NCBI GenBank assembly: GCA_023898605.1
Contig: CP060230.1
Span: forward strand, 67,944 to 131,943
Direction of reading: 5' to 3'
Length of the DNA: 64,000 nt
DNA from: Candidatus Nomurabacteria bacterium
Lineage (GTDB): Bacteria > Patescibacteriota > Minisyncoccia > Phycocordibacterales > UBA9973
Under the pieces are notes generated by a model. It was not told the origin of the DNA. It saw only the letters and a list, made by a program, of their open reading frames with translations, and ran no database searches. The stretch's first letter is position 1. Each line of letters opens with the position of its first letter. A program made the translations under genes and the position numbers. Shown piece after piece: positions 15,526-42,191 of this stretch.

Positions 15526-15615
15526 ATAAACTTGACAGAGGTGATATAATATAAGAGTAAAGATAAAAGTATCTTGTTTATAAGTATTAAGTAGCATGGC
15601 TAGGCTTGTAACAAA

Positions 15616-17066: not shown

Positions 17067-17092
17067 CTTTGTAAATAAGATTAGATGTGTAT

Positions 17093-17215
17093 GCTCAGTA
17101 CCGACGTCCCGACATGTGGTCGTCGGGAGCACGGAGAGCCGACAGAATCGTCGGCTTTGGTTAGAGCACTCGCCTGAAGAGCGAGGTGTCGGCAGTTCGA
17201 GTCTGCCCCCGAGCA
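17093..17215 (+). pseudogene. Second tRNA-Phe copy lacking a 5' acceptor strand, with a 59-nt double-hairpin insertion in the D-loop after GCTCAG
   Basis: Positions 17158-17215 are identical to the 3' 58 nt of tRNA-Phe (TGGTTAGAGC...CCCGAGCA). GCTCAG lies at 17093-17098. The insert at 17099-17157 is built from CCGACG/CGTCGG and GCCGAC/GTCGGC hairpins. Confidence 0.6.
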
Positions 17216-17345
17216 CAAGATATAACCTAGTCAATTCTAATTTTAAAAAATGGTACACTACACTTACATTTTAAAAAGCTTAAAGGATGGCAAGTATTAT
17301 ATAGGGTCAACCTCCGATTTGGGCTAGCTTCACCCCAAAGATGTT

Positions 17346-17389: not shown

Positions 17390-17914
17390 ATGATCTTTAA
17401 CTTAAAATACTTTATCATGTCGAATAATAATGAAACAGTTGAAAACCCTACCACTTCTGTAGATAAAGTGGTAATTTCAATCTCTAAACGATCGATCTGG
17501 TCATTTATTGGACTGCTTGTGGTAGCTGGCTTCAGCTATCTCCAATGGATAGGCTATTTATTGCCAACCTTTAAGCAGATATTTATTTTGATTGAGGAAG
17601 CAGATGCTTCAATTTTAAGCGTAAGCCAAATAGGGTTGATGTGGGTGCCCGTAATATCGTACGCCCTAGTGGCGTTAAATATCTGTCTTTTTTTTAATAT
17701 ATTTAAGGAATTAAAGAAAGAGAAAGGTCTCATTGCGGGTCTCATTGTGGGTCTCATTTGGGGTCTTTGGGGTCTCATTGCGGGTCTCATTGCGGGTCTC
17801 ACTGCGGGTCTCATTGTGGGTCTCATTTGGGGTCTCACTTGGGGTCTCACTTGGGGTCTCACTGCGGGTCTCATTATGGGTCTCATTATGGGTCTCAAAA
17901 ATGAGTACTCATGA
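17390..17914 (+). CDS. Membrane protein with C-terminal (G-L-I/T-x)n repeat array
   Basis: TM helices, then about 15 tandem 12-bp repeats (GGTCTCATTGCG variants) encoding GLIAGLIVGLIWGL... An alternative start at 17417 (MSNNNET) is possible. Confidence 0.5.
   Translation: MIFNLKYFIMSNNNETVENPTTSVDKVVISISKRSIWSFIGLLVVAGFSYLQWIGYLLPTFKQIFILIEEADASILSVSQIGLMWVPVISYALVALNICLFFNIFKELKKEKGLIAGLIVGLIWGLWGLIAGLIAGLTAGLIVGLIWGLTWGLTWGLTAGLIMGLIMGLKNEYS
17727..17895 (+). repeat. 12-bp tandem repeat array (about 15 copies) inside the CDS
   Basis: Repeat units are GGTCTCATTGCG, GGTCTCATTGTG, GGTCTCATTTGG, GGTCTCACTTGG and similar. The array is in frame because the period is a multiple of 3. Confidence 0.8.
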
Positions 17915-25722: not shown

Positions 25723-25992
25723 CTAGTTCACCCCGCCTATTTCAGGCGGGGCAAGCTGAGCTAATTTTTCTTTGTAATCTTTATTTTTCTTTTTTAGCCA
25801 CTTTTCGTGTTTTCTGGCTAGCTCATAATTTTTATATTCTTTGGTGTAAACTAAAACATATGGTTTTAGTTTAGAGGAGGTTTTTAATTTACCACTATTG
25901 TGTTCTTTTAATCGCCTAGTTGGATTATCAGAAATACCCACATAAAAACTTTGGTTTATTTTACTTTTTATAAGATAAACAAAGCAAGACAT
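25723..25992 (-). CDS. GIY-YIG nuclease family small protein
   Basis: N-terminus FVYLIKSKINQSFYVGISDNPTRRLKEHNSG. The start codon abuts the tRNA-Val 3' end. The last 12 codons are encoded by the ATTAGCTCAG plus CCCCGCC/GGCGGGG hairpin motif. The printed sequence near 25981 appears 1 nt out of register with the ORF track, so coordinates may be off by 1. Confidence 0.75.
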   Translation of the reverse strand: MSCFVYLIKSKINQSFYVGISDNPTRRLKEHNSGKLKTSSKLKPYVLVYTKEYKNYELARKHEKWLKKKNKDYKEKLAQLAPPEIGGVN

Positions 25993-26066
25993 GTGAGCGA
26001 TAGAGGATTCGAACCTCTGACCTTTCCCACGTCAAGGGAACGCTCTACCGACTGAGCTAATCGCTC
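25993..26066 (-). tRNA. tRNA-Val (anticodon GAC)
   Basis: Minus strand: acceptor GAGCGAT/ATCGCTC. D-arm GCTC-AGTCGGTA-GAGC. Anticodon stem TTCCC/GGGAA with loop TTGACGT. T-arm AGAGG-TTCGAAT-CCTCT. Discriminator A. No CCA is encoded. Confidence 0.8.
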
Positions 26067-26475
26067 GCTCAAATAAAATTACTACAGTACAAATTGTATC
26101 AATAAAAAATAAAATATGCTCTACTTCACCCCGCCTATTTCAGGCGGGGCAAGCTGAGCTAATCGCTCGCTCAAATAAAATTACTACAGTACAAATTGTA
26201 TCAATAAAAAATAAAATATGCTCTACTTCACCCCGCCTATTTCAGGCGGGGCAAGCTGAGCTAATCGCTCGCTCAAATAAAATTACTACAGTACAAATTG
26301 TATCAATAAAAAATAAAATATGCTCTACTTCACCCCGCCTATTTCAGGCGGGGCAAGCTGAGCTAATCGCTCGCTCAAATAAAATTACTACAGTACAAAT
26401 TGTATCAATAAAAAATAAAATATGCTCTACTTCACCCCGCCTATTTCAGGCGGGGCAAGCTGAGCTAATCGCCCT
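26052..26475. repeat. Four tandem 102-bp repeats plus a partial unit; each unit fuses a tRNA-Val 5' fragment to the GIY-YIG 3'-end hairpin
   Basis: Units start at 26052, 26154, 26256 and 26358 and are near identical. On the minus strand each reads GAGCGATTAGCTCAG, then CTTGCCCCGCCTGAAATAGGCGGGGTGAAGTAGAGC, then about 55 nt of AT-rich sequence. The distal partial unit ends GGGCGATTAGCTCAG, which is the 5' strand of the split tRNA. Confidence 0.85.
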
Positions 26476-26574
26476 AGTGGGTTATAGAATATAACAATTG
26501 AGATCAAAAGTCGAATGGTTGCCTTGCCTTGGTTTGTGTTATAGTATCATCCTAAATAAATTTAAGTTTTTTAT

Positions 26575-27243: not shown

Positions 27244-27257
27244 GGCGACTTTTTTAT
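27229..27257 (+). terminator. Rho-independent terminator
   Basis: AGTCGCCC-CTATGTA-GGGCGACT followed by TTTTTT. Confidence 0.65.
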
Positions 27258-27314
27258 TTTTGACAAAAAAGGCAATATGGGTGTATATTCAGAAATGAAT
27301 CAAACCCTCGCACC

Positions 27315-27857
27315 ATGCAAAACCCAAACTTGATTATTCGGTACATTTTTCCATTGATTAATTCAAATGGAATTGACTCTAGTATTGGATTTTTGACCGA
27401 CACAGAGATACAGGGTTGTAATATACACTTTGTATCCAATTTCTTCTGGAATGAATTTTATCCCACTAAGTATAGTGGAATGGAGATTCTAGAAGAGTGC
27501 ATCAATCAGTCACTCATGGAAAATCCACGAGAAATTTTTTTGTTTCTTGTTCAGATGAAGCAGGCAGACAAACTGATTTCGCGTGAGAAAATACCCATGC
27601 CATGCATTCACCCCAAAGACATGATTCTCGGAAACACTGTTCTGGAAATTCAAAACATTTCAGAACTAAAAAAGATGAGAGGTGGAGTACCTGCTTCGAT
27701 TTCGGATATACCTTATATCGAGGTTGGCTCAAAGAGGAGAGATCATGTCATCTATCCGTTTACCTTTGAGTTCGACATTGATCCAAAAGAAGTCGGAAGG
27801 CCATTTTTTGGAATCGACAGCGTCGAATTTCCAAACCACAAAAAACAGATATCTTAA
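27315..27857 (+). CDS. Hypothetical protein, paralog A of tandem pair
   Basis: Shares blocks FFWNEFYPTKYSGMEILE and IPMPCIHP with the next gene. Unknown family. Confidence 0.5.
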   Translation: MQNPNLIIRYIFPLINSNGIDSSIGFLTDTEIQGCNIHFVSNFFWNEFYPTKYSGMEILEECINQSLMENPREIFLFLVQMKQADKLISREKIPMPCIHPKDMILGNTVLEIQNISELKKMRGGVPASISDIPYIEVGSKRRDHVIYPFTFEFDIDPKEVGRPFFGIDSVEFPNHKKQIS

Positions 27858-27865
27858 ATCACAAG

Positions 27866-27892
27866 CACCCCACGTCGGGGTGCTTTTCTTTG
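27866..27892 (+). terminator. Terminator GCACCCC-ACGTC-GGGGTGC + TTTTC (copy 1)
   Basis: Near-identical copy at 28510-28538. Confidence 0.65.
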
Positions 27893-27943
27893 ACAAGAAA
27901 TATTATATGGGTGTATATTCAGAAATGAATAAAACCCTCAGTT

Positions 27944-28504
27944 ATGAAAGAAACATATCTCATTTTGAGACAACTGTACTTTACCAGTATAGGAGAACCT
28001 TATATCTTCGTAAGCGAAGATGAACTTTTCCACGGAAGGAATTTTAACACCAGGGTTGAAGAAATTTATATTGTTTCTGAATACTTTTGGAAACAAAACC
28101 CTCATAAGTACTTTGGAATGGAAAAATTAGAATCTTTAATTTCTGAACGCGTTGAAGATCATAGGTCTGCACGTATTATTTTTTTCTTTATGGAGAAAAA
28201 TTATCTTGATAAAATTATCAAGAGATCTTGTATTCCTATGCCAATGATTCCTCCCGGGTGTATTGCCTACGGTATTGATATTCGCCCCATGCTTTTTTAT
28301 TCTATAGAAATCGATAAAAATCTTCGCATCGGACATATCGGAGACAAAGAAGCACCCATTGTGTGGACAGATGAGGAAAAACCAAGACCTTTGGTTGGAT
28401 CAGTATTTTTCAATTATGATTCCATGTTAAAATATCCGGACGGCATAATACCTTTGTATATAGCTGGTCCAGGCTTCAATGACGCTCGCTTTAAGGTTAT
28501 CTGA
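27944..28504 (+). CDS. Hypothetical protein, paralog B of tandem pair
   Basis: Motifs YFWKQNPHKYFGMEKLE and IPMPMIPP align with paralog A. Preceded by the same promoter-like sequence (TTGACA..ATATGGGTGTATATTCAGAAATGAAT.AAACCCTC). Confidence 0.5.
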   Translation: MKETYLILRQLYFTSIGEPYIFVSEDELFHGRNFNTRVEEIYIVSEYFWKQNPHKYFGMEKLESLISERVEDHRSARIIFFFMEKNYLDKIIKRSCIPMPMIPPGCIAYGIDIRPMLFYSIEIDKNLRIGHIGDKEAPIVWTDEEKPRPLVGSVFFNYDSMLKYPDGIIPLYIAGPGFNDARFKVI

Positions 28505-28509
28505 AATAG

Positions 28510-28538
28510 TGCACCCCGCGTCGGGGTGCTTTTCTTTT
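28510..28538 (+). terminator. Terminator GCACCCC-GCGTC-GGGGTGC + TTTTC (copy 2)
   Basis: Duplicate of the terminator at 27866. Confidence 0.65.
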
Positions 28539-28574
28539 GACAAAATCTGATTTTTGATGTAATTTAACAAAAAA

Positions 28575-29135
28575 TTGAAAACTATGGTTAAGAAATATTT
28601 ATTTCCCAGGAACAGACTCGTTTTGACATTCAGGGGTTTAAGATTCACAATTGCTTTTGGATACGACAAAAACTGTTTTGGAGGGAAGAATAATATATTT
28701 TTTTCTTCTCTACTTTATTCTCAGGTCTATTTCTTTTTGGAGGTCCCCAATGACCTGGGCGGTATCGAAGCTTTTCATAGAATCCAGCCATCTTCTGGTA
28801 AAAAAGTGTATGCCGAAGGTGCTGGGGGACCGTTTTTCTACCCAAGTGAATTTTTTGATTTCATGGTTTCGGATATTTCTGAAGCAATTATGAATAATAA
28901 ATCACAGCAAGCAGAAGAATGGAAAAGGTTTATGAATAGCATCGTCGTTATAACCGTTGGTCCCCAGAAAAATATCGTGGGTTTCTGGTTCGAGGATGAT
29001 GTGATTCATGAGATTGGTGGAGCAGTTCTCACCAAAAGGTTCGAAGATCTCCAGCACGTGTTTGAATCTTTTCCAAGACGTATGGTTTTGGCTGCTGTAA
29101 AAAAAAGGGCGGGAAACAACAAAGGAAAAAGATAA
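28575..29135 (+). CDS. Hypothetical protein
   Basis: 186 aa with no recognisable domain. Has its own promoter-like TTGACA-N17-TAATTT. Confidence 0.4.
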   Translation: MKTMVKKYLFPRNRLVLTFRGLRFTIAFGYDKNCFGGKNNIFFSSLLYSQVYFFLEVPNDLGGIEAFHRIQPSSGKKVYAEGAGGPFFYPSEFFDFMVSDISEAIMNNKSQQAEEWKRFMNSIVVITVGPQKNIVGFWFEDDVIHEIGGAVLTKRFEDLQHVFESFPRRMVLAAVKKRAGNNKGKR

Positions 29136-29287: not shown

Positions 29288-29568
29288 AGCAAGGTATACT
29301 CATCTGTCGCTATCTAAGTTACCAGTTCTTATACAACTGCTCATCAAGCTCTAAAGATATTGATAACTATTGCTCAGTCTGACCTTTATTTTCCGCGTCG
29401 TTGGCGCAAAGCACTTGCGGCAACAGATTTTTCTTTTTTTCGAGGGAGGTCCTTTCTCAAAAGTTTTGATGCAAGTTTGCCAACTTTTTTACTAGTTTTT
29501 GCCATAAAATTATATAAATTAATTATTAATATCGACCAATATAGAAATATGTGGAAAACTGTACATTG

Positions 29569-29595
29569 AAAACTTTCTATATATTTTCTATAATA
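29569..29595 (+). promoter_or_regulatory. Promoter TTGAAA-N17-TATAAT overlapping direct repeats GAAAACT x2; ATG 6 nt after the -10, so the mRNA looks leaderless
   Basis: GGAAAACTGTACATTGAAAACTTTCTATATATTTTCTATAAT lies upstream of the LexA-MTase ATG at 29602. Confidence 0.4.
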
Positions 29596-29601
29596 TCATA
29601 C

Positions 29602-31050
29602 ATGATTACAAAAAAGCAAAAAAATGTGCTGGATTTTATAAAAAATTTTCAGCAAAAAAATGCTATATCCCCATCATTAGAAGAAATTAAGAAAAAATTT
29701 GGTTTAGCTTCCGTTTCTACAGCTTCTTATTATGTTGAAAAACTAGAAAGCAAAGGATATTTAAAAAAAGACGACAAACAACACAGAGGAATATCGGTTT
29801 TTGAAAACGAAAGCATGGTAAAAATACCTTTACTTGGCGTAATTGCTGCTGGAGAACCAATACAATCCATAGAAAACCGTGAAGAGATTGCACTTCCAAA
29901 GAGTAGGATAGGCAACAACAATAATGTTTTTGCATTGAGGGTCTCAGGAGACAGTATGATCGACGAAAATATACAAGACGGTGATGTGGTTGTTGTAAGA
30001 GAAACTAAAAACCCCACAAACGGTGATAAGGTTGTCGCATTAATAGATCGAGAGAATGTTACTTTAAAAACTTTTTATAAGGAAAAAAAACAAATTTTAC
30101 TTAAACCAGCAAATAAAAAATATGACTCGATTGTCATAGATAAAAATAGAGAATTTGAAATTCAAGGAGTGATGATTGATATTGTAAAACAATCATTTAA
30201 CAATCCTGTAGATATTATATTTCCAGAAAAGGCGCAGAAACGAAAAACGACTATTCCTCTAAATAAAGTAGTGTGTGGAGATTGTGTTGATGTGATGAAA
30301 AATATACCAGACAACTCCGTTGACATGGTCGTTACTTCTCCACCTTATGATGATGTAAGAAACTATAATGGTTTTAGTTTTAACCTACACGACACAGGTA
30401 AAGAAATCTTTAGAATTTTAAAAGACGGTGGTGTTGTAGCTATGGTTATCCAAGATCAAACAAAAAATTTTGGTAAAAGTTTAACATCTTTTAGAACTAT
30501 CGTTGATTGGGTGGATAATATAGGTTTTAAATTATTTGAAACAGTAATTTATAGAAAACATGGTACCGAGGGGGCATGGTGGAAATATCGTTTTAGGGTA
30601 GATCATGAATATATGCCAATTTTTATTAAAGGAGAAAGACCCAGCTATTTTAATAAAGAAAATCTTAAGATACCCTCAAAGCATGGTGGAAAAGTAATGA
30701 CTGGTAGTGGAAATAGAAAGACTGATGGAACAACAACAAAAACAGTTACAAGACCTATAAATTTAAATAAATGCCGTGGAACTATTTGGGATTATTTGAA
30801 TGCAGGTGATAAGAATCCATTAAAAAGAAAACATCCAGCTGTATTCCCAGATCAAATTCCTGTGGATTTTATAGATTGTTTTTGTCCGCCTAAAGGCATA
30901 GTCCTTGATCCGTTTGTAGGTTCAGGATCAACACTAGTTGCCGCTAAAAAGCTCGGGAGAAATTATATTGGGATTGATATCTCACAAGAGTATTGTGATC
31001 TAACAGAGGAAAGATTAAAAAAGGATATACCAAACACCTTATTTAAATAG
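29602..31050 (+). CDS. Fusion protein: full-length LexA-like repressor (HTH + S24 peptidase) fused in frame to a beta-class N4/N6 DNA methyltransferase
   Basis: Residues 1-205 align along their length with LexA. Matching blocks are MITKKQKNVLDFI, IPLLGVIAAGEPI (Ala-Gly cleavage site), LRVSGDSMIDENIQDGDVVVV (Ser) and VTLKTFYK..LLKPAN (Lys). The remainder has PDNSVDMVVTSPPYDD (motif IV, SPPY) followed by DPFVGSGSTLVAAKKLGRNYIGIDI (motif I). The ATG at 29602 was chosen; the track's GTG at 29551 is less likely. Confidence 0.8.
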   Translation: MITKKQKNVLDFIKNFQQKNAISPSLEEIKKKFGLASVSTASYYVEKLESKGYLKKDDKQHRGISVFENESMVKIPLLGVIAAGEPIQSIENREEIALPKSRIGNNNNVFALRVSGDSMIDENIQDGDVVVVRETKNPTNGDKVVALIDRENVTLKTFYKEKKQILLKPANKKYDSIVIDKNREFEIQGVMIDIVKQSFNNPVDIIFPEKAQKRKTTIPLNKVVCGDCVDVMKNIPDNSVDMVVTSPPYDDVRNYNGFSFNLHDTGKEIFRILKDGGVVAMVIQDQTKNFGKSLTSFRTIVDWVDNIGFKLFETVIYRKHGTEGAWWKYRFRVDHEYMPIFIKGERPSYFNKENLKIPSKHGGKVMTGSGNRKTDGTTTKTVTRPINLNKCRGTIWDYLNAGDKNPLKRKHPAVFPDQIPVDFIDCFCPPKGIVLDPFVGSGSTLVAAKKLGRNYIGIDISQEYCDLTEERLKKDIPNTLFK

Positions 31051-32083: not shown

Positions 32084-32305
32084 TTATTTAACGAAAAAAT
32101 CTAGCGATTTTTTATAAAGTTTTGCAAACTCTTTGAGTTGCAAAACATCAAAGCGTCTTTGTCCAGATTCTATCTTTGAGACATAAGATTGAGTTCTGCC
32201 AAGTTTTTCAGAGACTCCAATCTGACTTAAACCAGCTTCAAGACGCGCTTTTTTCAAGCGTTCTACTATTTTCTTATGGTCGTCTTGATAAATCGCTCTT
32301 GGCAT
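32084..32305 (-). CDS. Controller (C) protein, XRE-family HTH
   Basis: 73 aa. The HTH is EAGLSQIGVSEKLGRTQSYVSKIESGQ. Positioned immediately upstream of the putative REase, as in PvuII, BamHI and Esp1396I systems. Confidence 0.65.
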   Translation of the reverse strand: MPRAIYQDDHKKIVERLKKARLEAGLSQIGVSEKLGRTQSYVSKIESGQRRFDVLQLKEFAKLYKKSLDFFVK

Positions 32306-32570: not shown

Positions 32571-32707
32571 GTCTTTGTGACCCTAGTCGTGGTGCGACCA
32601 TACGATTCGTTGCTCCCACAATGCTTTTTTGGCTTTTTCTATTATATCAAGTCGACCCTTGTCGAGCGACAAAAAGTGACAAAAGTGACACAGGTTTAAA
32701 TAAAAAG

Positions 32708-32733
32708 GTTACAGCAATCTGTAACCTTTTTGC
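32708..32733. terminator. Bidirectional terminator downstream of aspS
   Basis: GGTTACAG-CAAT-CTGTAACC flanked by A-runs and T-runs. Confidence 0.6.
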
Positions 32734-32737
32734 TACT

Positions 32738-34030
32738 TTATGGATTTAATCGCTTAACATCTCTTGGGAGATAAGTCGCCTCGCGAACATTTGGCAGGTC
32801 GAGGATTTTCATAATGAATCGTCCAGGACCAATACCTGCACCTCCATGTGGAGAGCATCCCCATCGGAAAAAGTTGAGATAATCTTTTAATTCTTCAAGA
32901 GACATACCTTTCTCTTTTGCTTGTTTCTCAAGTATCTCAATGCGGTGCTCACGTTGTGCAAGAGTCGTTACTTCAATACCTTTAAACAAAAGGTCTGCGC
33001 GCTTGCCCCGACCTTCTTCGTTGCGCATATGATAAAAGGCACTTTTTGATACATGGTATTCAGTAATGAAGACGAAGTCGTGATTGTGCTTTTCTCGTAC
33101 GTATTCACTGATAGCGCGCTCTTCTTCTGGAGAGAGATCGTGTTCTTCTCCGCTTGCCACACCACGCTCTGCAAGTATCTTTTTTGCTTCAACCATCGTA
33201 ATCTGCGGAAAAGGCATACTAGGGATTTCTAGTTGGAGCTCTGGAAACTTTTCTTTTAATCGGGTAAATCCAGAAACTATCATATTTTCCTCGGCAACAA
33301 TGATGTCCTGATGAGATTCAATGTAGGCCATTTCAAAATCCCAACCAGTAAATTCTGTAAGGTGTCGGGTTGTAAATGAAAGCTCTGCTCGAAATACAGG
33401 ACCTGTCATAAACACTCTTTCAAAACCACTTGCAATAGCCATTTGTTTATAGAACTGTGGTGACTGTGCAAGATATGCCTTGCGGTCAAAGTAGTTAACT
33501 TCAAAGACTTCAGCACCAGTTTCGCTTGGCGTTGACATGAATGAGGGTGTATAGATTTGAATAAAATTATTTTTATCCCAGTAGTCACGGAAGCCTTTTT
33601 CAAGTTCCGTCCATACCTTGAAAATCTTTAGATGATCTGGTTTACGAAGATCAATCCAGCGATAGTCGAAACGTATAGGTGCTTCAGTTTCTTCTCCACC
33701 CTTCTTTTCAATAATTGGTATCGGTAGCTGTGCATCGGCAGCTGAAAGTACTTCGATTGAAGTAGCTTCTATTTCATAACCACAAGGTGCCTGAGCTGCC
33801 TCTTTCACAAGGCCTACAACTTTAACCACTGATTCTGTAGTAAGTTCCTTGGCAATTTGAAAAGCCTCGGCCTGTTCAATGGTAACGACTGTTTGCAAGA
33901 TACCAGTTACATCCCGAACAATAAGGAATGCGATTTTACTTTGCGCACGTATAGTATGAGCAAAGCCTACGACAGTAGTCTCTTTCCCTGAATACTCAGG
34001 AATGTCTTTAATATAGGTTCTTATAATCAT
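32738..34030 (-). CDS. aspS: Aspartyl-tRNA synthetase, archaeal/eukaryal type (class IIb, 430 aa)
   Basis: Motif 2 is FRAELSFTTRHLTEF. The C-terminus PHGGAGIGPGRFIMKILDLPNVREATYLPRDVKRLNP resembles archaeal AspRS ...PRDRKRLTP. AsnRS is not fully excluded. Confidence 0.75.
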   Translation of the reverse strand: MIIRTYIKDIPEYSGKETTVVGFAHTIRAQSKIAFLIVRDVTGILQTVVTIEQAEAFQIAKELTTESVVKVVGLVKEAAQAPCGYEIEATSIEVLSAADAQLPIPIIEKKGGEETEAPIRFDYRWIDLRKPDHLKIFKVWTELEKGFRDYWDKNNFIQIYTPSFMSTPSETGAEVFEVNYFDRKAYLAQSPQFYKQMAIASGFERVFMTGPVFRAELSFTTRHLTEFTGWDFEMAYIESHQDIIVAEENMIVSGFTRLKEKFPELQLEIPSMPFPQITMVEAKKILAERGVASGEEHDLSPEEERAISEYVREKHNHDFVFITEYHVSKSAFYHMRNEEGRGKRADLLFKGIEVTTLAQREHRIEILEKQAKEKGMSLEELKDYLNFFRWGCSPHGGAGIGPGRFIMKILDLPNVREATYLPRDVKRLNP

Positions 34031-34310
34031 ATTTATTAGAGATGAAGGAACAAAAATGCCCCTTCGAACTTATGTTGATAAGCTCGCAGGGGCGATAGTA
34101 TATCGCGGTGCCACCCTACTTTTTTCTCTGGCTCCGTATCGTTGCCTCCCCGTTGTCAGTGGTTCAAAGGCTTCGATATGCAGTAACGCTACTATATCAC
34201 AAACACATACTTAAGTAAAGCGGTAGCGAAAAGCTTTTCGCAAGTATGCTATGTATTTCTAGTCCTGCATAGTCTTAGCAAACATAGTGAACTCTGTCAT
34301 CAATATATAC

Positions 34311-35594
34311 ATGACAGAAATAATAAAAGACAATTTAAAGTATTGTTTGTACGCCCGCAAATCAACCGAAGCAGAAGAAAAACAAGCTCTTTCTATTGAT
34401 TCCCAAATCAAAGAAATGAAGCAAATAGCTGATCGTGAAGGGTTAAATATTGTTGAGATTCGTCGTGAATCTCATAGTGCAAAAGAATCAGGTCAACGAC
34501 CAGTATTTGAAGAAATACTAAAGGATATAGACGACGGCATATTTAACGCCATTATCACTTGGGCACCAGATAGATTAAGTCGTAATGCAGGAGACCTAGG
34601 AAAACTGGTTGATCGTATAGATCAAAAGAAACTAACTCAAATCAAAACTTTTGGTCAGACATTTACAAACTCACCAAGTGACAAATTTCTTCTTATGATT
34701 TTGTGTTCTCAAGCAAAACTTGAGAATGACAACAAGAGTATTAATGTGAAGCGAGGTATGAGAGCACGGTGTGAAATGGGATTATGGCCAGTACAGCCAC
34801 CAACTGGATATAGAAAGCCAAATGAGAGATTGTCTAAATGTGAAGTAGAGATTGATCCAGAAAGAGCACCGGTTATCAAACAAATTTTTGAAAAGATTGC
34901 ATACGAACGATGGAGCGGAATGAGAGTATATTCGTGGTTGCGATATGAATTAAATTTTAAAACACACAAAGGATTCTATTTAAGTGTCGGAAATGTATTT
35001 AAGATAATCAACAACACCTTTTATTACGGACGATTTGAATTTCCACAAGGAAGTGGAAACTGGTATGACGGAAAACACACACCAATAATCAGTAAAGAAC
35101 TTTTTGATGATTGTCGATCTGCAATTAAAACACAGGTCATAAAAACCCATGGAAAAGAGTTTGCGTTTACTCGAATGGTGAAATGTGGATCGTGCGGATC
35201 GGGGATTACTGCTGATGAGAAGTTCAAGAAGTTGCTAAACGGAGGAGTAAATAGACATGTCTATTATAGGTGTACGAAGTCGAAAGATAGAAAATGTACG
35301 AATCCTGCAATAAACGAAGACGATCTATTAAAAGAATTTCAGAAAATGGCAGGAACTTTGGAACTTAATGAAGTACAACTTAATGAGAAATTAAATCTTG
35401 AAATTAAGAAATTCAAAAAACTTCAAGCGATGTTTTTAGGAAAGGACAACCCAGCAGATATACAGAAAGTTGATCTCAGAAATTACATGAAATTCGTTTT
35501 GAAAGACGGAACAATTTTAGAAAAACGATCGGTTCTTGATTGTATAAAAAACGATCTAGTTTTGAAAAATAAGATCATAATAGTTAAAGAGTAA
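34311..35594 (+). CDS. Large serine recombinase (resolvase-domain + recombinase domain + zinc-ribbon)
   Basis: N-terminus CLYARKSTEAEEKQALSIDSQ carries the catalytic Ser. A zinc-ribbon Cys cluster follows (CGSCGS...YYRCTKSKDRKC). ATG at 34311. Confidence 0.8.
   Translation: MTEIIKDNLKYCLYARKSTEAEEKQALSIDSQIKEMKQIADREGLNIVEIRRESHSAKESGQRPVFEEILKDIDDGIFNAIITWAPDRLSRNAGDLGKLVDRIDQKKLTQIKTFGQTFTNSPSDKFLLMILCSQAKLENDNKSINVKRGMRARCEMGLWPVQPPTGYRKPNERLSKCEVEIDPERAPVIKQIFEKIAYERWSGMRVYSWLRYELNFKTHKGFYLSVGNVFKIINNTFYYGRFEFPQGSGNWYDGKHTPIISKELFDDCRSAIKTQVIKTHGKEFAFTRMVKCGSCGSGITADEKFKKLLNGGVNRHVYYRCTKSKDRKCTNPAINEDDLLKEFQKMAGTLELNEVQLNEKLNLEIKKFKKLQAMFLGKDNPADIQKVDLRNYMKFVLKDGTILEKRSVLDCIKNDLVLKNKIIIVKE
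34311..35594 (+). mobile_element. Serine-recombinase gene marking a probable integrated element (extent undefined)
   Basis: Followed by a perfect 11-bp hairpin (35614-35648), a 10-bp hairpin (35683-35708) and tRNA-Glu. Downstream are two sigma factors and the repeat-flanked cassette. Confidence 0.4.
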
Positions 35595-35710
35595 AACTAA
35601 CTTTTTAAACAAAAATACCTAACGAGATCATCGTTAGGTATTTTTGTTATTCTTTATAGCAAGGGTATTTAGTGACCCTTGTCGAGTGCTCGAACTAGCA
35701 CTCGACTCTG

Positions 35711-35782
35711 TGACCCTACGGGGAATCGAACCCCGATTACCGGCTTGAAAAGCCGATGTCCTAACCGTTAGACGATAGGGCC
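35711..35782 (-). tRNA. tRNA-Glu (anticodon TTC)
   Basis: Minus strand: acceptor GGCCCTA/TAGGGTC (one G-U pair). D-arm GTCT-AACGGTTA-AGAC. Anticodon stem TCGGC/GCCGG with loop TTTTCAA. T-arm CGGGG-TTCGATT-CCCCG. Confidence 0.75.
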
Positions 35783-36061
35783 ATTTGGTGGAAAGATTAT
35801 AACACAAGAAAATGATAAAGCAAACGGTATTTCCTTGTCAGATATATGTTTTGTGGTAAGATTTGTTTAAGCGTTTTTTCTGAAAAATCGGGGGAATAAT
35901 GGTGGGTTTTTGGCGTCGTCATTATAGTACGTCTGATTCCGTGGTTGTTTTCTGCCACCCCCGATTTTTTCCAAGTTCTTTACAATGGAAAACCCAGCGA
36001 CCGTCTGGTACGCCTCCATTATACGATTTTCTCGTTAAGTGTGTTTGATTTTTTTGAATTC

Positions 36062-36090
36062 CGACCCCCGTGCTTGCACGGGGGTTTTAT
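36062..36090 (+). terminator. Rho-independent terminator
   Basis: CCCCCGTGC-TT-GCACGGGGG followed by TTTTAT. It closes a structured region that begins at about 35885 and contains the inverted pair AAAATCGGGGG...CCCCCGATTTT. Confidence 0.6.
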
Positions 36091-36140
36091 ATTTGTAATA
36101 GATAAATTTCTATGTATAATCAAAAAAAACCCCTGCACCT

Positions 36141-36710
36141 ATGAAAAATATGCAAACCCTCTCCGACCATCAATTGGTCCAAATGTTCATGAGTGATGGA
36201 AATGAACAAGCTTTTGGTGAAATCTATCTTCGGTACGAAAATCCCGTGAGAGATTTTATTAAAAAATTGTTTTACGGCAGTAAAATGCCAAACTGTCAGG
36301 ACGAAGATGATATCGTTCAAGAAACCTTCCTGAATGTACATAGTGCCTTGAAAAGAGGCCTGTACAAGAATGAAGGGAGAATGAAGGCATGGATCTTTAC
36401 TGTCGCAAAGAATCTTTTTCTGACAATTTTCCAAAAAAACAAAAGGAAGCCAGTGTCGGAACTCAATGATTGGTATTCTAAAATGGTGTTTTTGCCAGAT
36501 ATAGAGAACAGAATGTTCTCCGAAAGGGCTTTCGAATTTCTACTAAAAAGCGGTAGAGATTATGATTGTTTGTTTTTGTATGCGATTGGTTTGAAATACA
36601 ACCAAATTGCAGAAGTCATGAATATCTCCAAAAACACCGTAGGGGCAAAAATATTTAAACAAAGAAAATCTTTGGAAGAGGTTTTTGCCCCAGAGAGATC
36701 AGAACGTTGA
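36141..36710 (+). CDS. ECF-type RNA polymerase sigma factor (sigma-70 family, regions 2 and 4)
   Basis: Region 2 is DIVQETFLNVHSAL. The region-4 HTH is YNQIAEVMNISKNTVGAKIFKQRKSL. A promoter TTGTAA-N16-TATAAT lies upstream. Confidence 0.75.
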   Translation: MKNMQTLSDHQLVQMFMSDGNEQAFGEIYLRYENPVRDFIKKLFYGSKMPNCQDEDDIVQETFLNVHSALKRGLYKNEGRMKAWIFTVAKNLFLTIFQKNKRKPVSELNDWYSKMVFLPDIENRMFSERAFEFLLKSGRDYDCLFLYAIGLKYNQIAEVMNISKNTVGAKIFKQRKSLEEVFAPERSER

Positions 36711-36809
36711 AAACAACAACTGCGTGCCCCGTGCTGCGCAGTTTTTTTGTGATAAAATATTCTGGTTAATCATTTAACTAAAAAATAAAAAAATATAAAA
36801 ATCGGCACT

Positions 36810-36838
36810 TTGACATAAGTGTCGATTTTATGTAGTAT
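36810..36838 (+). promoter_or_regulatory. Promoter TTGACA-N17-TAGTAT
   Basis: Same hexamer pair as at 4515. Confidence 0.45.
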
Positions 36839-36857
36839 CGAAAAAAAGCACATTCAT

Positions 36858-37904
36858 ATGTCCAATAAAAAACCAGAAATGACCATAGACTATTCTAAGG
36901 CAGAAGAGGTTTTCGGAACATTGTATGATGCTTTCGAAAACAAAACTTTTCCTTTTGACCAAGTCGTTTTACCTCAAAGGAGGGATAACATGCCTGACTC
37001 GATAGAGTGGGGTGGTCGCGATCACGCACTTTTTCTGTTTACTCTATGCTACTACATGAGAGGTCAGATAAAGAGTGAAACTGCTGTAAAAAATCTCAAG
37101 AAAATATGGGAAGACAACAAAGATTTGTTCGACCCAGATTACTTGAAATTTGCGGACCACGAAACAGTTTCCAAGATTATCGAAGACAAGTTGTTTTTTA
37201 ACGGCCTCGGATTCGGATCAAAGTCCATTGCACCCCAATGGTGTCTCAACAAAGTCAAAATAGCCAATCATTGGTCAAGTGATCCACGTAAACTGTTTGA
37301 AAATGTTTCCGGATATGAAGACGCTCTAAAGGTCGTAGCAAACAAGGGTAAATGGAAAGCCGAGAAGCCAAACGGTTTCTATGGTTTCCAAGAGAAAATG
37401 GTTTCCATGCTCGCATATTTTTATGTTGATGCAGGAATTATTTCACCCCTGAGATTCCCGCCACCAATAGATTTTCATATCTTGAGAGTTCTGGTTTCAA
37501 ACGAAGTTTTGAAGATCAGTAACTTCTATCCCGGAATGAGTTTCTATTATGGTAAGACCACCGATATGGCAAGAGAGGTGACAAATTGGTGGTTGGAGAA
37601 ACATTCTAAAGATCCGATGATACTTTCCAACGTTCTGTGGCTTATGTCTCGGGACAACTGTGAAAGATCCCCAACAAACGGATCAATCATTGGAGAGTAC
37701 AAAGCAAGGAGTACTAAGGTGAATCCAAAAAATCTTTCTTTCAAGATGGCCACTAAAAGGTTCGAGAATACCTGCTTCAGGTGTCCGATCAAAGATAGTT
37801 GTAGGTATGATATACCATCGGCTTCTTATTATACACACGGAAAACTCGAAGTAAGGCAAGAGAAGAAAAAGGACTATCTGGTACAACTAAGGTTGAAACT
37901 ATAA
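36858..37904 (+). CDS. Hypothetical protein with C-terminal Cys cluster (CFRCPIKDSCRY)
   Basis: 349 aa from the ATG at 36858 (MSNKKPEM). No recognisable domain by eye. Confidence 0.45.
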   Translation: MSNKKPEMTIDYSKAEEVFGTLYDAFENKTFPFDQVVLPQRRDNMPDSIEWGGRDHALFLFTLCYYMRGQIKSETAVKNLKKIWEDNKDLFDPDYLKFADHETVSKIIEDKLFFNGLGFGSKSIAPQWCLNKVKIANHWSSDPRKLFENVSGYEDALKVVANKGKWKAEKPNGFYGFQEKMVSMLAYFYVDAGIISPLRFPPPIDFHILRVLVSNEVLKISNFYPGMSFYYGKTTDMAREVTNWWLEKHSKDPMILSNVLWLMSRDNCERSPTNGSIIGEYKARSTKVNPKNLSFKMATKRFENTCFRCPIKDSCRYDIPSASYYTHGKLEVRQEKKKDYLVQLRLKL

Positions 37905-37978
37905 GCGTTTGATTTGAATTTTCAGTCAAACGCTTTTTCTTTTTGCATAAAGTGGGGGATAGGAATATAATTTACATT

Positions 37979-38581
37979 ATGATAAAAGTTGACTACAAAG
38001 AAGCTTTTTTGGGGATACTAGGTGCGGTTCTTGTAATTGTTGCTATCGGAGTTGCACCACTGGAAAAAATCAAAAATTCTTCTACAAACAAAGGTGAGGT
38101 CGGTGTTTCTGATTATGAAAAAACTGTAAACGAAATACTGTCTGTTATTGCTCTATCTTCGGAAGTAAACGAGCCGGTGGGGTCTTTGTTTGAAGAATAC
38201 TACTCAACACATTCTTCTTCTGATATGAGTGTTGCAGAAAAGAATCTACTTGATCAAGCAAGACGAAGACTAGATGGGGCAGGGGTTTCACTCAGGATAC
38301 CAACTGTCGAAGGTGTGAATTTATACTCTATGCAAGGAGGTGACGGATACGGTGGATATTTCTGGGTCCTGTGGCTTTCTGAAGAAAGAAGAGCTGGACT
38401 AGTAGGTAATCCAGATATAACAATAAACTTCCCAGTAGAAGATCCGAGCGTGCTTATGGTCAGAACAGAAAAGTTTATGGTAGACGGAGAAGACCAGCCA
38501 TTAGTCAGGGGTTATCTTATAGAAAATGGTTTTGCAAACCCAACAGTCGGACCGTCTCCAGTGTTTGTAGAATATAAATAA
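37979..38581 (+). CDS. Hypothetical membrane-anchored protein
   Basis: A single N-terminal TM helix (ATG at 37979, MIKVDYKEAFLGILG...) followed by a soluble domain. Confidence 0.4.
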   Translation: MIKVDYKEAFLGILGAVLVIVAIGVAPLEKIKNSSTNKGEVGVSDYEKTVNEILSVIALSSEVNEPVGSLFEEYYSTHSSSDMSVAEKNLLDQARRRLDGAGVSLRIPTVEGVNLYSMQGGDGYGGYFWVLWLSEERRAGLVGNPDITINFPVEDPSVLMVRTEKFMVDGEDQPLVRGYLIENGFANPTVGPSPVFVEYK

Positions 38582-38583
38582 AA

Positions 38584-38610
38584 ATCTCCGCACAAAGCGG
38601 AGTTTTTTTA
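38584..38610 (+). terminator. Rho-independent terminator
   Basis: CTCCGC-ACAAA-GCGGAG followed by TTTTTTT. The T-run is the first part of the 52-bp repeat. Confidence 0.6.
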
Positions 38611-38654
38611 TTCTCTATCTACTCTCTCATCGAGAAGTACTGGCTCTATGTCGC
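38603..38654. repeat. 52-bp perfect direct repeat, copy 1 (duplicate of rmuC 3' end)
   Basis: TTTTTTTATTCTCTATCTACTCTCTCATCGAGAAGTACTGGCTCTATGTCGC is identical to 39673-39724. Confidence 0.9.
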
Positions 38655-38723
38655 CAAAACTTTTTATATTTATATTTGACTTATATATATTTATATAGTA
38701 TAATATAAAAAAATAACAACAAA

Positions 38724-39668
38724 ATGCACCTTAACAAAAGCCAACAAAAAGAAGTACAAAAATTTCTACAGATGGTAGGTGCTAAAAAGCCACTTACCTT
38801 AGAAGAAGAAAAAAGACTCTTTGAAAAGAGTCTTTCAAAAGACCAAATTAAAAAATTATTGATTTCGCACAATGCTCGTTATATTGTGCATGTAGTGAAA
38901 GAACACCTTTACGAAGGTGTTGAAATAGCTGACCTTCTACAAGAAGGATTGGTAGCGACTTATGTCGCTGCCGATAAATTTGACCATACTCGTGGTTTTA
39001 AATTTATCAGCTACGCTACTCATTACATGAAAGCGTATATTTTGAAATTTTGTTCAGAGGAGATTAATTTTAGCCTAAGTGAGATGCTAAAACACATTAA
39101 GGTAAAAAAAATTTCTTCAATTTTTGAACAAAAGTTTGGGATATACCCTCTAATTCAAGATATTGCCTTTGACGAGGAGGTGATGGAATACCTTGGAATT
39201 AGTAGTGGGAATCTTAAAAAAATTTTTTACAAAATAGAGGTTCTTTCCTTGGAAGCTACTTACAAGGAAAGAAGGGATGGAGAATCCTATACCTCAAGTG
39301 TTTCACCAATCGATGTGTTGATTGATGAAACCTTCGCGATCGATCCTGAGATGGAGAAGGAGTCCTTCAGGATGGACTTAAAAGAGTTTTTCAAAATCTT
39401 AAATATCCGTCTAAGGACGGACTTGTCCTTTCTTATCTTCAATATAGGTTCGCAAGAGCTTATAAAAGATTCGAAGGACAATCTCGTCCAAGAATTGATG
39501 GAAGAATATCCATCAGGATATGAAGTTGACTTGGAAACCCTGGGACTCGTCTTGGGGATTAGCAAGGAAAGGGTAAGGCAAAGGATTCATAAGAGCATCT
39601 CTGAGCTAAGAAAAAGGGAGAAGCTTGTGAGTCTGTTTTTTGAAAAACATAGAAGCCTTCTTAATTGA
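38724..39668 (+). CDS. Sigma-70-family RNA polymerase sigma factor (314 aa)
   Basis: Region 2 is DLLQEGLVATYVAADKFDHTRGFKFISYATHYMKAYI. The region-4 HTH is LETLGLVLGISKERVRQRIHKSISELRK. It has its own promoter, TTGACT-N17-TATAAT. Confidence 0.75.
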   Translation: MHLNKSQQKEVQKFLQMVGAKKPLTLEEEKRLFEKSLSKDQIKKLLISHNARYIVHVVKEHLYEGVEIADLLQEGLVATYVAADKFDHTRGFKFISYATHYMKAYILKFCSEEINFSLSEMLKHIKVKKISSIFEQKFGIYPLIQDIAFDEEVMEYLGISSGNLKKIFYKIEVLSLEATYKERRDGESYTSSVSPIDVLIDETFAIDPEMEKESFRMDLKEFFKILNIRLRTDLSFLIFNIGSQELIKDSKDNLVQELMEEYPSGYEVDLETLGLVLGISKERVRQRIHKSISELRKREKLVSLFFEKHRSLLN

Positions 39669-39672
39669 AGGC

Positions 39673-39724
39673 TTTTTTTATTCTCTATCTACTCTCTCAT
39701 CGAGAAGTACTGGCTCTATGTCGC
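39673..39724. repeat. 52-bp perfect direct repeat, copy 2 (native rmuC 3' end; encodes EPVLLDERVDRE-stop on the minus strand)
   Basis: Identical to 38603-38654. Confidence 0.9.
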
Positions 39725-40718
39725 TAGATGCTCCAGCGATACGCAAGACGTCTTTGTCGACTTTCTTGAGTTCTTTTCCAGAAGAGTTATAGTGATTTAC
39801 TGCAGTCGATAAGGTGTTGCCGAGTTTGTTATGATAATCCTCATAAGCTTTCAAGTGTTTACCTAGATCTTCAACTCTTTTGATTATTTCTTGTGCGCGT
39901 TCTTCTATCTCTAGAGCTTTGAGCCCTTGGAGAACAGTTTGGAGGAATGCTAGGAATGAAGTAGGAGAGACTATGATAACTTTTTTTTCTTTGAACGCAT
40001 AGTCTATGAGGTCACGAGTGTTGACCTTGATACCGCCGACTTGAGCAACAAGAAGATCATAATATATAGCTTCGTGAGGTATGAACATAAACGCAAAGTC
40101 CATAGTTCCTTCGCTTGGTTTTACGTATTTACTTGTTTCGTCGATACGAAGCTTGAGATCGTTCTTGAACTGCTTCTCCAACTCTTCTCTTCGAGACTTA
40201 TCTTTTTCTTCGACAAGACGGTTGTAGTTTTCTAGAGAAAACTTGGAGTCTATCGGTATAATCTTGTCTTTGACGAAAACAACTGCATCGACAATAGTAC
40301 CGTCTTTGAAACCATACTGTACTTGGTATGAGCTTGGAGGAAGAACATTTTTCAAAACTGTTTCTAGATAATATTCGCCCAAGATACCTCTTTGTTTTGG
40401 ATTCTTGAGTATGTCCTGGAGACTTTCTAGCTGTTCGGCGAAACCTACAACTTGTTTTCCGGTTTCTTTGACTTCAGTAAGTTCGCGAGTTATTTCTCGT
40501 ATTATTTTTTGTGATTCTCCCGCTTGGTATCGTATAGATTCGTTGACTTGTCTTTCTGTTTCGCGGAGTTTCTGATCGAGAGTATTGGAGAGGTTGTTTA
40601 GTTGCTGTAGTAGTAGGGAAGAGTCGCCATCTTTTGGAGAAGAGTTCTTGTTTTTGGAAAGATAAAAAATAATCCCCAAAAGCATGATGACTATAATTCC
40701 AAAAAAGATGTTTTCCAT
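39678..40718 (-). CDS. rmuC: DNA recombination protein RmuC
   Basis: N-terminal TM helix, a coiled coil, then GILGEYYLETVL, IPIDSKF and MFIPHEAIYYDLL blocks typical of RmuC. Confidence 0.8.
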   Translation of the reverse strand: MENIFFGIIVIMLLGIIFYLSKNKNSSPKDGDSSLLLQQLNNLSNTLDQKLRETERQVNESIRYQAGESQKIIREITRELTEVKETGKQVVGFAEQLESLQDILKNPKQRGILGEYYLETVLKNVLPPSSYQVQYGFKDGTIVDAVVFVKDKIIPIDSKFSLENYNRLVEEKDKSRREELEKQFKNDLKLRIDETSKYVKPSEGTMDFAFMFIPHEAIYYDLLVAQVGGIKVNTRDLIDYAFKEKKVIIVSPTSFLAFLQTVLQGLKALEIEERAQEIIKRVEDLGKHLKAYEDYHNKLGNTLSTAVNHYNSSGKELKKVDKDVLRIAGASSDIEPVLLDERVDRE

Positions 40719-40799
40719 ATCGGTTAATTATATCAGATTTTGAGTATTAAAAAATTTGACTTTTGACTGATAATGTTTAATATCGGTTTTGAATAAAGC

Positions 40800-40960
40800 A
40801 CATATAGATGAAAGAAAAAAATATACAAAAAGTGCCCATTGTCTGGGCACCAGGGCATCATGTATCTGTAAAAACTATGGACCAGTTGCCTAGCCACAAC
40901 TACGAAACACCGGACTATTTAGTTCGGAAATGACCCAAGGCCGCGTTTGCGGCCTTTTTT
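40800..40960 (+). ncRNA. Candidate sRNA (three hairpins + intrinsic terminator), orphan in an intergenic region between two minus-strand genes
   Basis: Hairpins are GTGCCCA-TTGTC-TGGGCAC and CCGGACTA-TTT-AGTTCGG. A terminator GGCCGCGTTTGCGGCC followed by TTTTTT is on the plus strand. Confidence 0.25.
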
Positions 40961-41708
40961 ATTGTTCGAGGAAATATTTGAGAGTATATAGCCAGTCTTC
41001 TTCTCCATCAGGGTTTTTTAGTTTTTCGTTGTACATCCACTCTAGATAACCTCTATCCATTTTGGCAACGTCTTCTACTTTTTGTCCGTTATATTTTCCA
41101 AAACCAAAAACTCTCATTATAGAAGGCTTGCTAGAGATTTCTATCATTTCTTTTATTGCTTCTTCTTCGTCGCCATTGTTTTTGTCTAGAAACTTTTTGT
41201 AGAGTCTTTCAAATAGTTTTCCCAGAACCAAAACATCACCCTTGGCATCATGAGCTTGAGCATCTACATCCATATCTAGAAAGTATCTTAGGTACTGCAA
41301 GTTGTATCTCGGTATTTTGGAGTCTTTGTCCATATGGCGTACGAGTCTCAGTGTGCAGATAAAGTCACCGATGTTTATGTCTTCTTTTGAAAACATATTT
41401 ATATCGAAAGGTGCGTTGTGTGCTACTGGTATATTATCTCTATCTTCAAAAAGTTTTTTGATTTTTTCATAATCAGAACTTTTTTTGAAAGCTTCTTTTC
41501 CTTCTACCATTTTGTTTGAGATATGATGAACTGCACTTGCTTCTGGTGGTATGGGTTTTCCAGGATTGTACAACTCTACAAAAATCTCACCATCTTCAAA
41601 GCTTGTGTCACCACGCTCTTTCTTGGCATAAGCTATTTGGCATAGTACATCTTCTTCTGTGTTTCCAGTAGTTTCTGTATCAAAAAATATAAAATTCTTC
41701 ATAGCCAT
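40959..41708 (-). CDS. DEDDh 3'-5' exonuclease (DnaQ-like) with ExoX-like C-terminal domain
   Basis: Exo I is FFDTETTG, Exo II is VAHNAPFDINM and Exo III is HDAKGDV. The C-terminus FGKYNGQKVEDVAKMDRGYLEWM matches the ExoX-like C-terminal block. ATG at 41708 (MAMKNF). Confidence 0.7.
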   Translation of the reverse strand: MAMKNFIFFDTETTGNTEEDVLCQIAYAKKERGDTSFEDGEIFVELYNPGKPIPPEASAVHHISNKMVEGKEAFKKSSDYEKIKKLFEDRDNIPVAHNAPFDINMFSKEDINIGDFICTLRLVRHMDKDSKIPRYNLQYLRYFLDMDVDAQAHDAKGDVLVLGKLFERLYKKFLDKNNGDEEEAIKEMIEISSKPSIMRVFGFGKYNGQKVEDVAKMDRGYLEWMYNEKLKNPDGEEDWLYTLKYFLEQ

Positions 41709-41738
41709 ACTATACAACTTTTGATATAATCTTTCTAT

Positions 41739-42191
41739 ATGAGTTTGCAAACAGACATAAAAGAAAAAATAAAAGAAGCAATGTTGGCAAAGGACCAAGT
41801 AAGGCTTGGTGTTATGAGGATGCTAACTAGTGCGTTTACAAATGAGCTTGTAGCCAAGGGTAAAAAGCCGACAGAAGAACTTTCTGACGACGAGGCATTG
41901 GCCGTGATTGCAAGGCTTGCAAAACAGAGAAAAGACTCAATAAGTCAGTTCGAAGCCGGTGGAAGAATGGATCTTGTAGAAGAAGAGAAGGGTCAGCTAA
42001 CTATTCTAGAAGAATTTTTACCAGAAATGATGGGAGAAGATGAAGTTAGAAGTTTTGTTTCTACAAAGAAAACAGAGCTCGGAGTAGATGATCCAAAAGA
42101 CAAAGGAAAGCTTATGTCAGAAGTTATGAAAGAATTAAAAGGTCGAGCCGATGGAGGCATTGTAAAAAGTGTAGTAGATAGTTTGTTTTAA
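41739..42191 (+). CDS. GatB/YqeY domain protein
   Basis: Sequence ...QVRLGVMRMLTSAFTNE...DEALAVIARLAKQRKDSISQFEAGGR is typical of the GatB_Yqey family. Confidence 0.75.
   Translation: MSLQTDIKEKIKEAMLAKDQVRLGVMRMLTSAFTNELVAKGKKPTEELSDDEALAVIARLAKQRKDSISQFEAGGRMDLVEEEKGQLTILEEFLPEMMGEDEVRSFVSTKKTELGVDDPKDKGKLMSEVMKELKGRADGGIVKSVVDSLF

Follow-up and report, generated by a model that had tools for sequence, protein, structure and literature searches.

The 64,000-nucleotide window analysed here (contig CP060230.1 of Candidatus Nomurabacteria bacterium, assembly GCA_023898605.1, positions 67,944 to 131,943) carries a sigma-70-family gene enclosed between two copies of a 52-bp sequence, one of which is the 3' end of the rmuC gene. 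The plus strand has two copies of the 52-mer (TTTTTTTATTCTCTATCTACTCTCTCATCGAGAAGTACTGGCTCTATGTCGC) and no more, at 38603..38654 (R1) and 39673..39724 (R2), identical at every position. In 100 dinucleotide shuffles it had no match, even with three mismatches tolerated; the first-pass annotation of this DNA had placed both copies exactly and judged the duplication far beyond chance.

R2 is the native copy. It takes in the final 44 coding nucleotides of rmuC, its TAA stop codon and five further nucleotides of an A/T run, and is the positional homologue of the rmuC ends of related bacteria. The gene itself (39678..40718, minus strand; 346 aa; Pfam RmuC, E-value 5.9e-55) is intact in this arrangement, and its translation ends with ...SSDIEPVLLDERVDRE before the stop codon. 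R1 is an orphan, matching the rmuC 3'-end sequence exactly without the gene body; read on the minus strand it ends with ...GDIEPVLLDERVDRE and a stop codon, and the frame upstream of it is open for only a few codons. The roles previously assigned to the two copies (true rmuC end and orphan duplicate) thus hold.

Between the copies lies a putative insert of 1,018 bp (38655..39672, plus strand), whose content was also described correctly before: (i) a sigma-70-type promoter (TTGACT-17-TATAAT; 38676..38704, plus strand; 11 of 12 matches and the best in a scan of 8 kb, 34000-42000), (ii) the sigma-70-family gene (38724..39668, plus strand; 314 aa), and (iii) an intrinsic terminator hairpin (T2; 39651..39676; -13.7 kcal/mol, z -3.3), and nothing else. 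T2 is common to the convergent sigma and rmuC genes, directly adjoins the T-run of R2 and scores as a terminator on both strands. The same configuration is seen at the other copy: R1 starts with a T-run directly after the hairpin T1 (38586..38602; -14.3 kcal/mol, z -6.2), the terminator of a hypothetical 212-aa gene (37943..38581, plus strand; 200 aa in databases), and T1 likewise scores on both strands. Because T2 adjoins the R2 T-run just as T1 adjoins that of R1, the terminator of the sigma gene is complete only together with the repeat. T1 may formerly have been the shared terminator of the 212-aa gene, whose homologues adjoin rmuC in sister lineages, and rmuC.

Terminal inverted repeats were not found at the insert ends (38655 and 39672), and the insert DNA has no similarity to related loci except in strains of the same species. 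RNA folding detected no significant secondary structure within the 52-bp repeat (z about -1), and an Rfam search of it gave nothing meaningful, its sub-threshold Phe_leader match corresponding to the terminator only. Two further genes lie upstream in the same orientation, outside the repeat-flanked unit: a gene for an extracytoplasmic function (ECF) sigma factor (36141-36710, plus strand) and one for a hypothetical 361-aa protein (36819-37904, plus strand).

Affiliation of the sigma factor gene

The encoded protein carries regions 1.2/2 and 4 and belongs to the sigma-70 family: it exceeds the cut-offs of Pfam PF04542 (Sigma70_r2; 40 bits, cut-off 24) and PF04545 (Sigma70_r4; 25.6 bits, cut-off 24.1), as well as that of NCBIfam TIGR02937 (57.3 bits, cut-off 42.9). 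It scores far below all equivalog cut-offs for RpoD, RpoS, RpoH and FliA. A sigma orthologue was not found in the sister lineage of this species, one genome of which is a public NCBI assembly. Because of these low equivalog scores and the missing orthologue, we regard the gene as accessory and not as the housekeeping RpoD/SigA.

Close relatives of the protein are confined to three near-identical sequences (100, 97 and 97%), the next match in a word-indexed search of 5.8 billion clusters having 31% identity. An exhaustive HMMER scan of 1.84 billion representatives recovered a single protein with E < 1e-30, namely the gene's own cluster, followed by a match of 36% restricted to the N-terminal half. 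The best full-length distant relative is a 312-aa sigma-70 factor of Nomurabacteria (28% identity). Such Nomurabacteria sigma factors of about 312-330 aa (for example KKQ35316.1, P0297) resemble the 314-aa protein in length, in regions 1.2/2 and 4, in a long insertion within region 4 and in alignment over the full length; P0297, unlike it, stands in a housekeeping context (mnmA to alaS).

In GC content, GC content at third codon positions (GC3), codon usage and codon distance the sigma gene lies within the range of its host, which rules out compositional foreignness. Together with the distant Nomurabacteria relative sharing the region 4 insertion, this composition suggests a donor from the Candidate Phyla Radiation (CPR). 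An origin from phages was rejected, as tblastn against 50,697 phage records gave at most 28% identity; PHROGs matched only a generic sigma family, and a scan of IMG/VR yielded no relatives. Membership in a defence system was likewise dismissed, PADLOC reporting only a weak partial match to MzaA of the kind comparable to any sigma factor.

The window allele differs from that of other strains at 23 positions (14 synonymous, 9 non-synonymous), 18 of which, including 12 synonymous ones, fall within 136 bp (39513-39648). Since the allelic changes are mostly synonymous, the gene is under purifying selection, and we conclude that it is a fixed accessory regulator. The crowding of 18 single-nucleotide polymorphisms (SNPs) into 136 bp indicates that a considerably more divergent sigma allele exists in the population.

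The locus in other strains and related lineages

Four other contigs encode an identical RmuC protein; they come from one NCBI metagenome-assembled genome and three ENA metagenome assemblies and are 98.8-99.2% identical to the window. Three of them (L001, L002 and L004) reach both repeat positions, where both copies are exact and the junctions are the same; the fourth ends before R1. The repeat is not an assembly artefact, a possibility that the first-pass annotation had raised, since both copies are spanned, with the same junctions, in three assemblies obtained independently from other samples.

The SNPs separating the window from the four other contigs are strongly patchy. There are none in 36145-38658, and the first occur 5 nt after R1; further on, the 18 SNPs of 39513-39648 are followed by a 97-bp SNP-free block (39649-39745), made up of T2, R2 and 21 more bp, and then by five SNPs in 39746-39819. 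The repeat might in this pattern be a favoured crossover point, or it might be homogenised. SNP-free stretches of 680 bp and of several kilobases occur nearby, and for this reason the 97-bp block was discounted as evidence on R2. With strains about 1% apart and multi-kilobase SNP-free stretches common, zero differences over the 104 bp of R1 and R2 are expected.

The arrangement is present in every sampled strain that reaches the locus and is older than their divergence. Because it also coexists with allelic diversity of the sigma gene, the insertion is not very recent; of the earlier suggestion that a very recent event delivered a sigma factor, the delivery by insertion stands and the recency does not, given its presence in all assemblies reaching the locus and the 18 SNPs in 136 bp.

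RmuC homologues form a continuum across the Patescibacteria at 59-81% identity. At 80 more distant species-level loci the rmuC side facing yqeY/obg is often syntenic and the side beyond the stop codon is not; the sigma gene, the 212-aa gene and the 361-aa gene are absent beyond the rmuC stop at all 80. In L085-L089 (RmuC 77-80% identical), psd comes next after rmuC, in some cases together with polymerase-IV-like and UmuD-like genes; farther downstream lie a gene weakly homologous to the 212-aa gene and one for an ECF sigma factor. The sister lineage L091-L096 (RmuC 76-77%) has a homologue of the 212-aa gene (70-72%) within about 400 bp of the rmuC stop, an adjacency recorded by name for L091, L092, L093, L094 and L096. 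Nothing but an unrelated open reading frame (ORF) of 89-95 aa, which has a hairpin of its own, occupies the slot between the two genes, and no duplication of the rmuC end is present.

It follows from these loci that genes of the 212-aa family and rmuC were neighbours ancestrally. The sigma gene is an insertion, as had been proposed from the sequence alone, and the slot that received it is variable, given that the sister lineage combines a 212-aa homologue near rmuC with different cargo and lacks the duplication; comparison of the loci indicates that this slot is filled with different cargo in each lineage, the sigma gene being the cargo of the present species. Alignment of the rmuC ends further showed that homology between lineages stops exactly at TAA plus five A residues, with a different hairpin per lineage beyond that point, and this limit coincides with the left edge of the 52-mer. 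Within the sister lineage the rmuC ends of L091 and L094 differ at 4 of 46 nt.

The search for an rmuC 3' region free of the insert, which had been recommended as a check, thus succeeded in relatives, none of which is close enough to provide a true empty site. Homologues of the 212-aa gene form only three clusters, corresponding to the species itself and to the sister lineage at 70-72%; no true empty site was found through them, and a metagenome scan for one was negative. Nor did any relative carry divergent copies of the repeat, which the first-pass annotation had pictured as the mark of an old, fixed arrangement: a scan of about 88 related loci for a repeat of the rmuC end yielded, outside strains of this species, terminator palindromes only.

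Origin of the 52-bp duplication

Two features of the locus bear directly on how the repeat arose. The edge of the duplicated piece coincides with the limit of homology between lineages, as would be expected of a recombination scar. Moreover, when the structure is written as A-R-S-R-B, the junctions A|R, S|R and R|B all resemble native junctions between a terminator and a gene end, and only R1|S (38654|38655) is novel. We consider, with moderate confidence, that the 52-bp repeat is the scar of a one-off recombination without site specificity, either a Campbell-type single crossover or an illegitimate event, that has since become fixed.

Under this explanation, a self-contained unit (promoter, orphan sigma gene and terminator hairpin) would have been inserted once between the convergent 212-aa gene and rmuC. 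The incoming DNA would already have borne the last 52 bp of the rmuC locus, from the A/T run behind the stop codon to 44 nt inside the gene, and two parent arrangements sharing only the rmuC end would have met, one with the 212-aa gene, T1 and rmuC, the other with the sigma gene, T2 and rmuC. The joining could have followed either of two routes: a single crossover of a circular molecule carrying the sigma unit and 52 bp of the rmuC end (Campbell-type), or homologous recombination within rmuC on one side together with illegitimate joining on the other, at 38654|38655. Neither would require a dedicated recombinase. The outcome would leave rmuC intact and supply working terminators to both the 212-aa gene (T1 with its T-run) and the sigma gene (T2 with its T-run), R1 having no function of its own.

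The fit of T2 to R2 is consistent with donor DNA in which the sigma gene already stood next to an rmuC end. SNP patches flank the junction of the sigma and rmuC genes on both sides, and so a more divergent lineage with this adjacency, as the proposed scar requires, probably exists. What the data show is the anatomy of the locus, its presence in every sampled strain that reaches it, the orphan status of the sigma gene, the variable slot and the independence of the serine recombinase; the route and the nature of the donor are inferred. Should the unit excise across the repeats, the circle would have the junction ...TTGAAGGC followed by the 52-mer and CAAAAC..., and the empty site would read ...AAGCGGAG followed by the 52-mer and TAGATGC....

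Comparable products are known: in Escherichia coli, most integrants of DNA with short homology were single crossovers in which a homologous segment of 109-950 bp was duplicated on both sides, and homology-facilitated illegitimate recombination (HFIR) joins one end by homology and the other illegitimately (PMC3240628). The present locus resembles the duplications of the lacZ end obtained in that work in that the flanking duplication equals the shared homologous segment in length, in that one junction is free of homology, and in the absence of a dedicated recombinase, inverted repeats and a transposase. It differs in the length of the duplication (52 bp as against 109-950 bp) and in being a natural event, fixed in a CPR species, that delivered a complete regulatory gene, its donor being known as a postulate only.

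Several points weigh against a recombination scar. The postulated donor arrangement (sigma gene, T2 and rmuC in the absence of R1) was not found in any genome. Among genomes without the sigma gene, even the nearest differ in about 25% of their DNA, and no true empty site was found at high identity. With 52 bp, the repeat approaches the minimum length at which homologous recombination is efficient. The enzyme responsible is not readable from the product, because RecA-mediated and recombinase-mediated single crossovers give the same one; a recombinase-mediated crossover would, however, demand extra events and finds no support in the evidence. The 97-bp SNP-free block could hint at constraint or gene conversion, in a region that is patchy overall, and a second long duplication of a gene end in the window (60 nt of a tRNA-Phe gene, described below) could point to a systematic mechanism instead of an accident.

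The first-pass annotation had read the repeats as the product of site-specific integration or of a very recent insertion. Integrative elements are classically recognized by exact direct repeats through which the 3' end of the target gene is restored, and those integrating at the 3' ends of genes and tRNA genes have recombinase-less derivatives (cis-mobilizable elements, pseudo-SCC elements related to the staphylococcal cassette chromosome, SCC). The 52-mers could accordingly be the attL and attR attachment (att) sites of such an element at the rmuC 3' end, its recombinase module having been deleted or acting in trans. The locus shares with these elements the exact repeats on both sides of the insert, identical to the target, the cargo between them and the intact gene; a circular form would again complete the sigma terminator (T2 with the T-run of the repeat), making the unit self-consistent, and the tRNA-Phe duplication shows that att-like scars occur in this genome. 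Against it, only the sigma gene lies between the repeats, and neither in nor next to the unit is there a recombinase except a serine recombinase with sites of its own; at 1.07 kb and with one gene, the unit has no cognate integrase and no related autonomous element. Recurrent use of rmuC as an att site was rejected, since none of the about 88 related loci duplicates the rmuC end, and none of them carries an integrase there. An attP on a phage or plasmid was rejected too, the 25-nt core of the repeat having no match in IMG/VR or in JGI metagenome contigs, and a viral relative of the sigma gene was not found. At least two events would be needed, integration and then an internal deletion sparing both att sites. 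An att remnant is thus rather doubtful, and the claim of a site-specific att duplication could not be sustained. That the neighbouring large serine recombinase recombines the 52-mers, with the sigma unit as its cargo or substrate, is very improbable. Proximity speaks for it (the gene lies 3.0-4.3 kb upstream), as does the fact that enzymes of the Ccr type, to which its best NCBIfam match (CcrB) belongs, can leave direct repeats of about 15-18 bp. The enzyme, however, resides in an element of 3,133 bp that has defined ends and a 10-bp repeat (TGTGACCCTA) at the 3' end of a tRNA-Glu gene; this element is present in L091, which has neither the sigma gene nor the duplication, and is cleanly absent from L094. 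The link suggested earlier between recombinase and repeats is therefore unsupported.

Retention of the second copy for a function (for example, read-through from the ECF operon yielding an RNA antisense to the end of rmuC, or gene conversion keeping the site identical) would account for the exactness of both copies in every strain reaching them, for the position of R2 inside the SNP-free block between SNP-dense patches, and for this identity in a sequence that is not specially conserved in the sister lineage. The expected absence of differences among such close strains, the lack of significant structure in the repeat, the position of R1 downstream of a strong terminator and the lack of anything comparable in relatives make this quite unlikely. 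Transposition with target-site duplication, or a misassembly, would also place direct repeats around an insert, and is hardly credible: known target-site duplications of transposons measure about 2-15 bp, a range that 52 bp far exceeds, the insert has no transposase domain or inverted repeats, and misassembly is at odds with the identical junctions in the other samples. Finally, the 52-bp repeats, and perhaps the tRNA-Phe duplication as well, may mark a still-active capture and movement of single-gene cassettes in CPR bacteria, with a 1,070-bp sigma circle excising and re-integrating at the rmuC 3' end by means of a recombinase acting in trans or of some host pathway giving rise to long staggered duplications. 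We consider this improbable; if true, regulators would be shuttled between ultra-small genomes.

The CPR bacteria (Patescibacteria) have tiny genomes and have not been cultured, and the ways in which they acquire genes are poorly understood. A recombination scar would make the locus a clean, dated case in which a complete regulatory gene without detectable relatives was gained by a genome of roughly 0.6 Mb (619 kb) at a recurrent insertion slot, with the joining mechanism recorded in the repeat and the sigma gene kept by selection ever since. Its importance is modest, as the type of event (gene gain leaving a duplicated homologous segment) is ordinary and only the organism is unusual.

The neighbouring serine recombinase element and other features of the window

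The large serine recombinase, the ECF sigma gene and the tRNA-Glu gene were correctly listed as upstream neighbours of the sigma unit; their distances, given as 3-5 kb, are about 1.9-4.3 kb. The recombinase (34311-35594, plus strand) contains Resolvase, Recombinase and Zn_ribbon_recom domains and belongs to a separate mobile element (32576..35718), the only other gene of which encodes a non-discriminating aspartyl-tRNA synthetase (AspRS; aspartate-tRNA(Asn) ligase; 32738-34030, minus strand; 447 bits, cut-off 353). Upstream of the latter, a T-box leader was matched below threshold (34085-34285, minus strand; 27.9 bits, gathering score 93). The element is bounded by the 10-bp direct repeat (32576-32585 and 35709-35718), which occurs in the window only at these two places and neither in nor near the 52-mer; the tRNA-Glu gene (35710-35782, minus strand) has the second copy as its 3' end, immediately at which the insertion took place.

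The region 32574-35784 is 99.66% identical over 3,211 bp to DNA of L091, where the element occupies 12687-15830, the flanking DNA being at most 75% and the flanking proteins 48-76% identical. L094 represents the empty site (near 11190-11230), separated from L091 by a clean indel of about 3.13 kb with flanks 99.4-100% identical. It is thus a large serine recombinase element by its domains, by its defined ends bearing a short repeat and by the site found empty in a relative; identical copies of the recombinase stand in two genomic contexts. Because it has its own sites, moves alone and occurs in a genome without the sigma gene and the duplication, the recombinase is independent of the sigma unit; its action on the 52-mers was rejected on the same observations and on the empty site in L094.

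With SCC and other Ccr-like elements the 3.13-kb element shares the protein domains, the position of the recombinase gene at one end, a short (10-bp) repeat, an empty site and near-identity across divergent hosts; it differs in having the AspRS as sole cargo and, as noted, does not involve the 52-mers. From the contrast between element and flanks, we conclude that this AspRS-carrying element has evidently been exchanged recently between CPR lineages. A tempting misassociation is thereby corrected, the nearby recombinase belonging to a different, recently transferred mini-element, which, with an aminoacyl-tRNA synthetase as its only cargo, is probably the more interesting object of the window.

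The second long duplication is an exact 60-nt direct repeat (17008-17067 and 17157-17216), in which the 3' part of a tRNA-Phe gene (16993-17067) recurs 149 bp downstream. Its 89-bp spacer is GC-rich and full of hairpins, and the repeat is followed by the truncated start of a GIY-YIG-like gene (MVHYTYILKSLKDGKYYIGSTSDLG, then a stop codon; from 17250). Neither repeat nor spacer matched viral contigs. We consider this duplication to be an att-like or homing-type scar. Another tRNA gene of the window, tRNA-Val (25993-26066, minus strand), adjoins a tandem array (25950-26561) in which a 102-nt unit is present four to five times, each unit being composed of the first approximately 18 nt of the tRNA and its upstream region with the hairpin TTCACCCCGCCTATTTCAGGCGGGGCAAGC; the hairpin is also present in inverted orientation at 16195-16224, just after a tRNA-Arg gene.

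Three further observations concern protein-coding regions. In an unusual 499-aa ORF (29551-31050, plus strand), a LexA DNA-binding domain is fused to an autocleavage domain (Peptidase_S24) and to an N6/N4 DNA methyltransferase domain, the last being called by PADLOC as orphan or Type II; the ORF adjoins an HTH_3 gene (32084-32305) and a 341-aa gene without family match. A promoter-like 56-nt repeat (27254-27309 and 27884-27939; 86% identical) precedes two of three tandem paralogues of about 180-186 aa (27315-29135), to which no function was assigned. Within the ORF at 17390-17914, a 12-nt unit (GGGTCTCATTGC and variants) is present about 15 times in tandem over 17709-17909.

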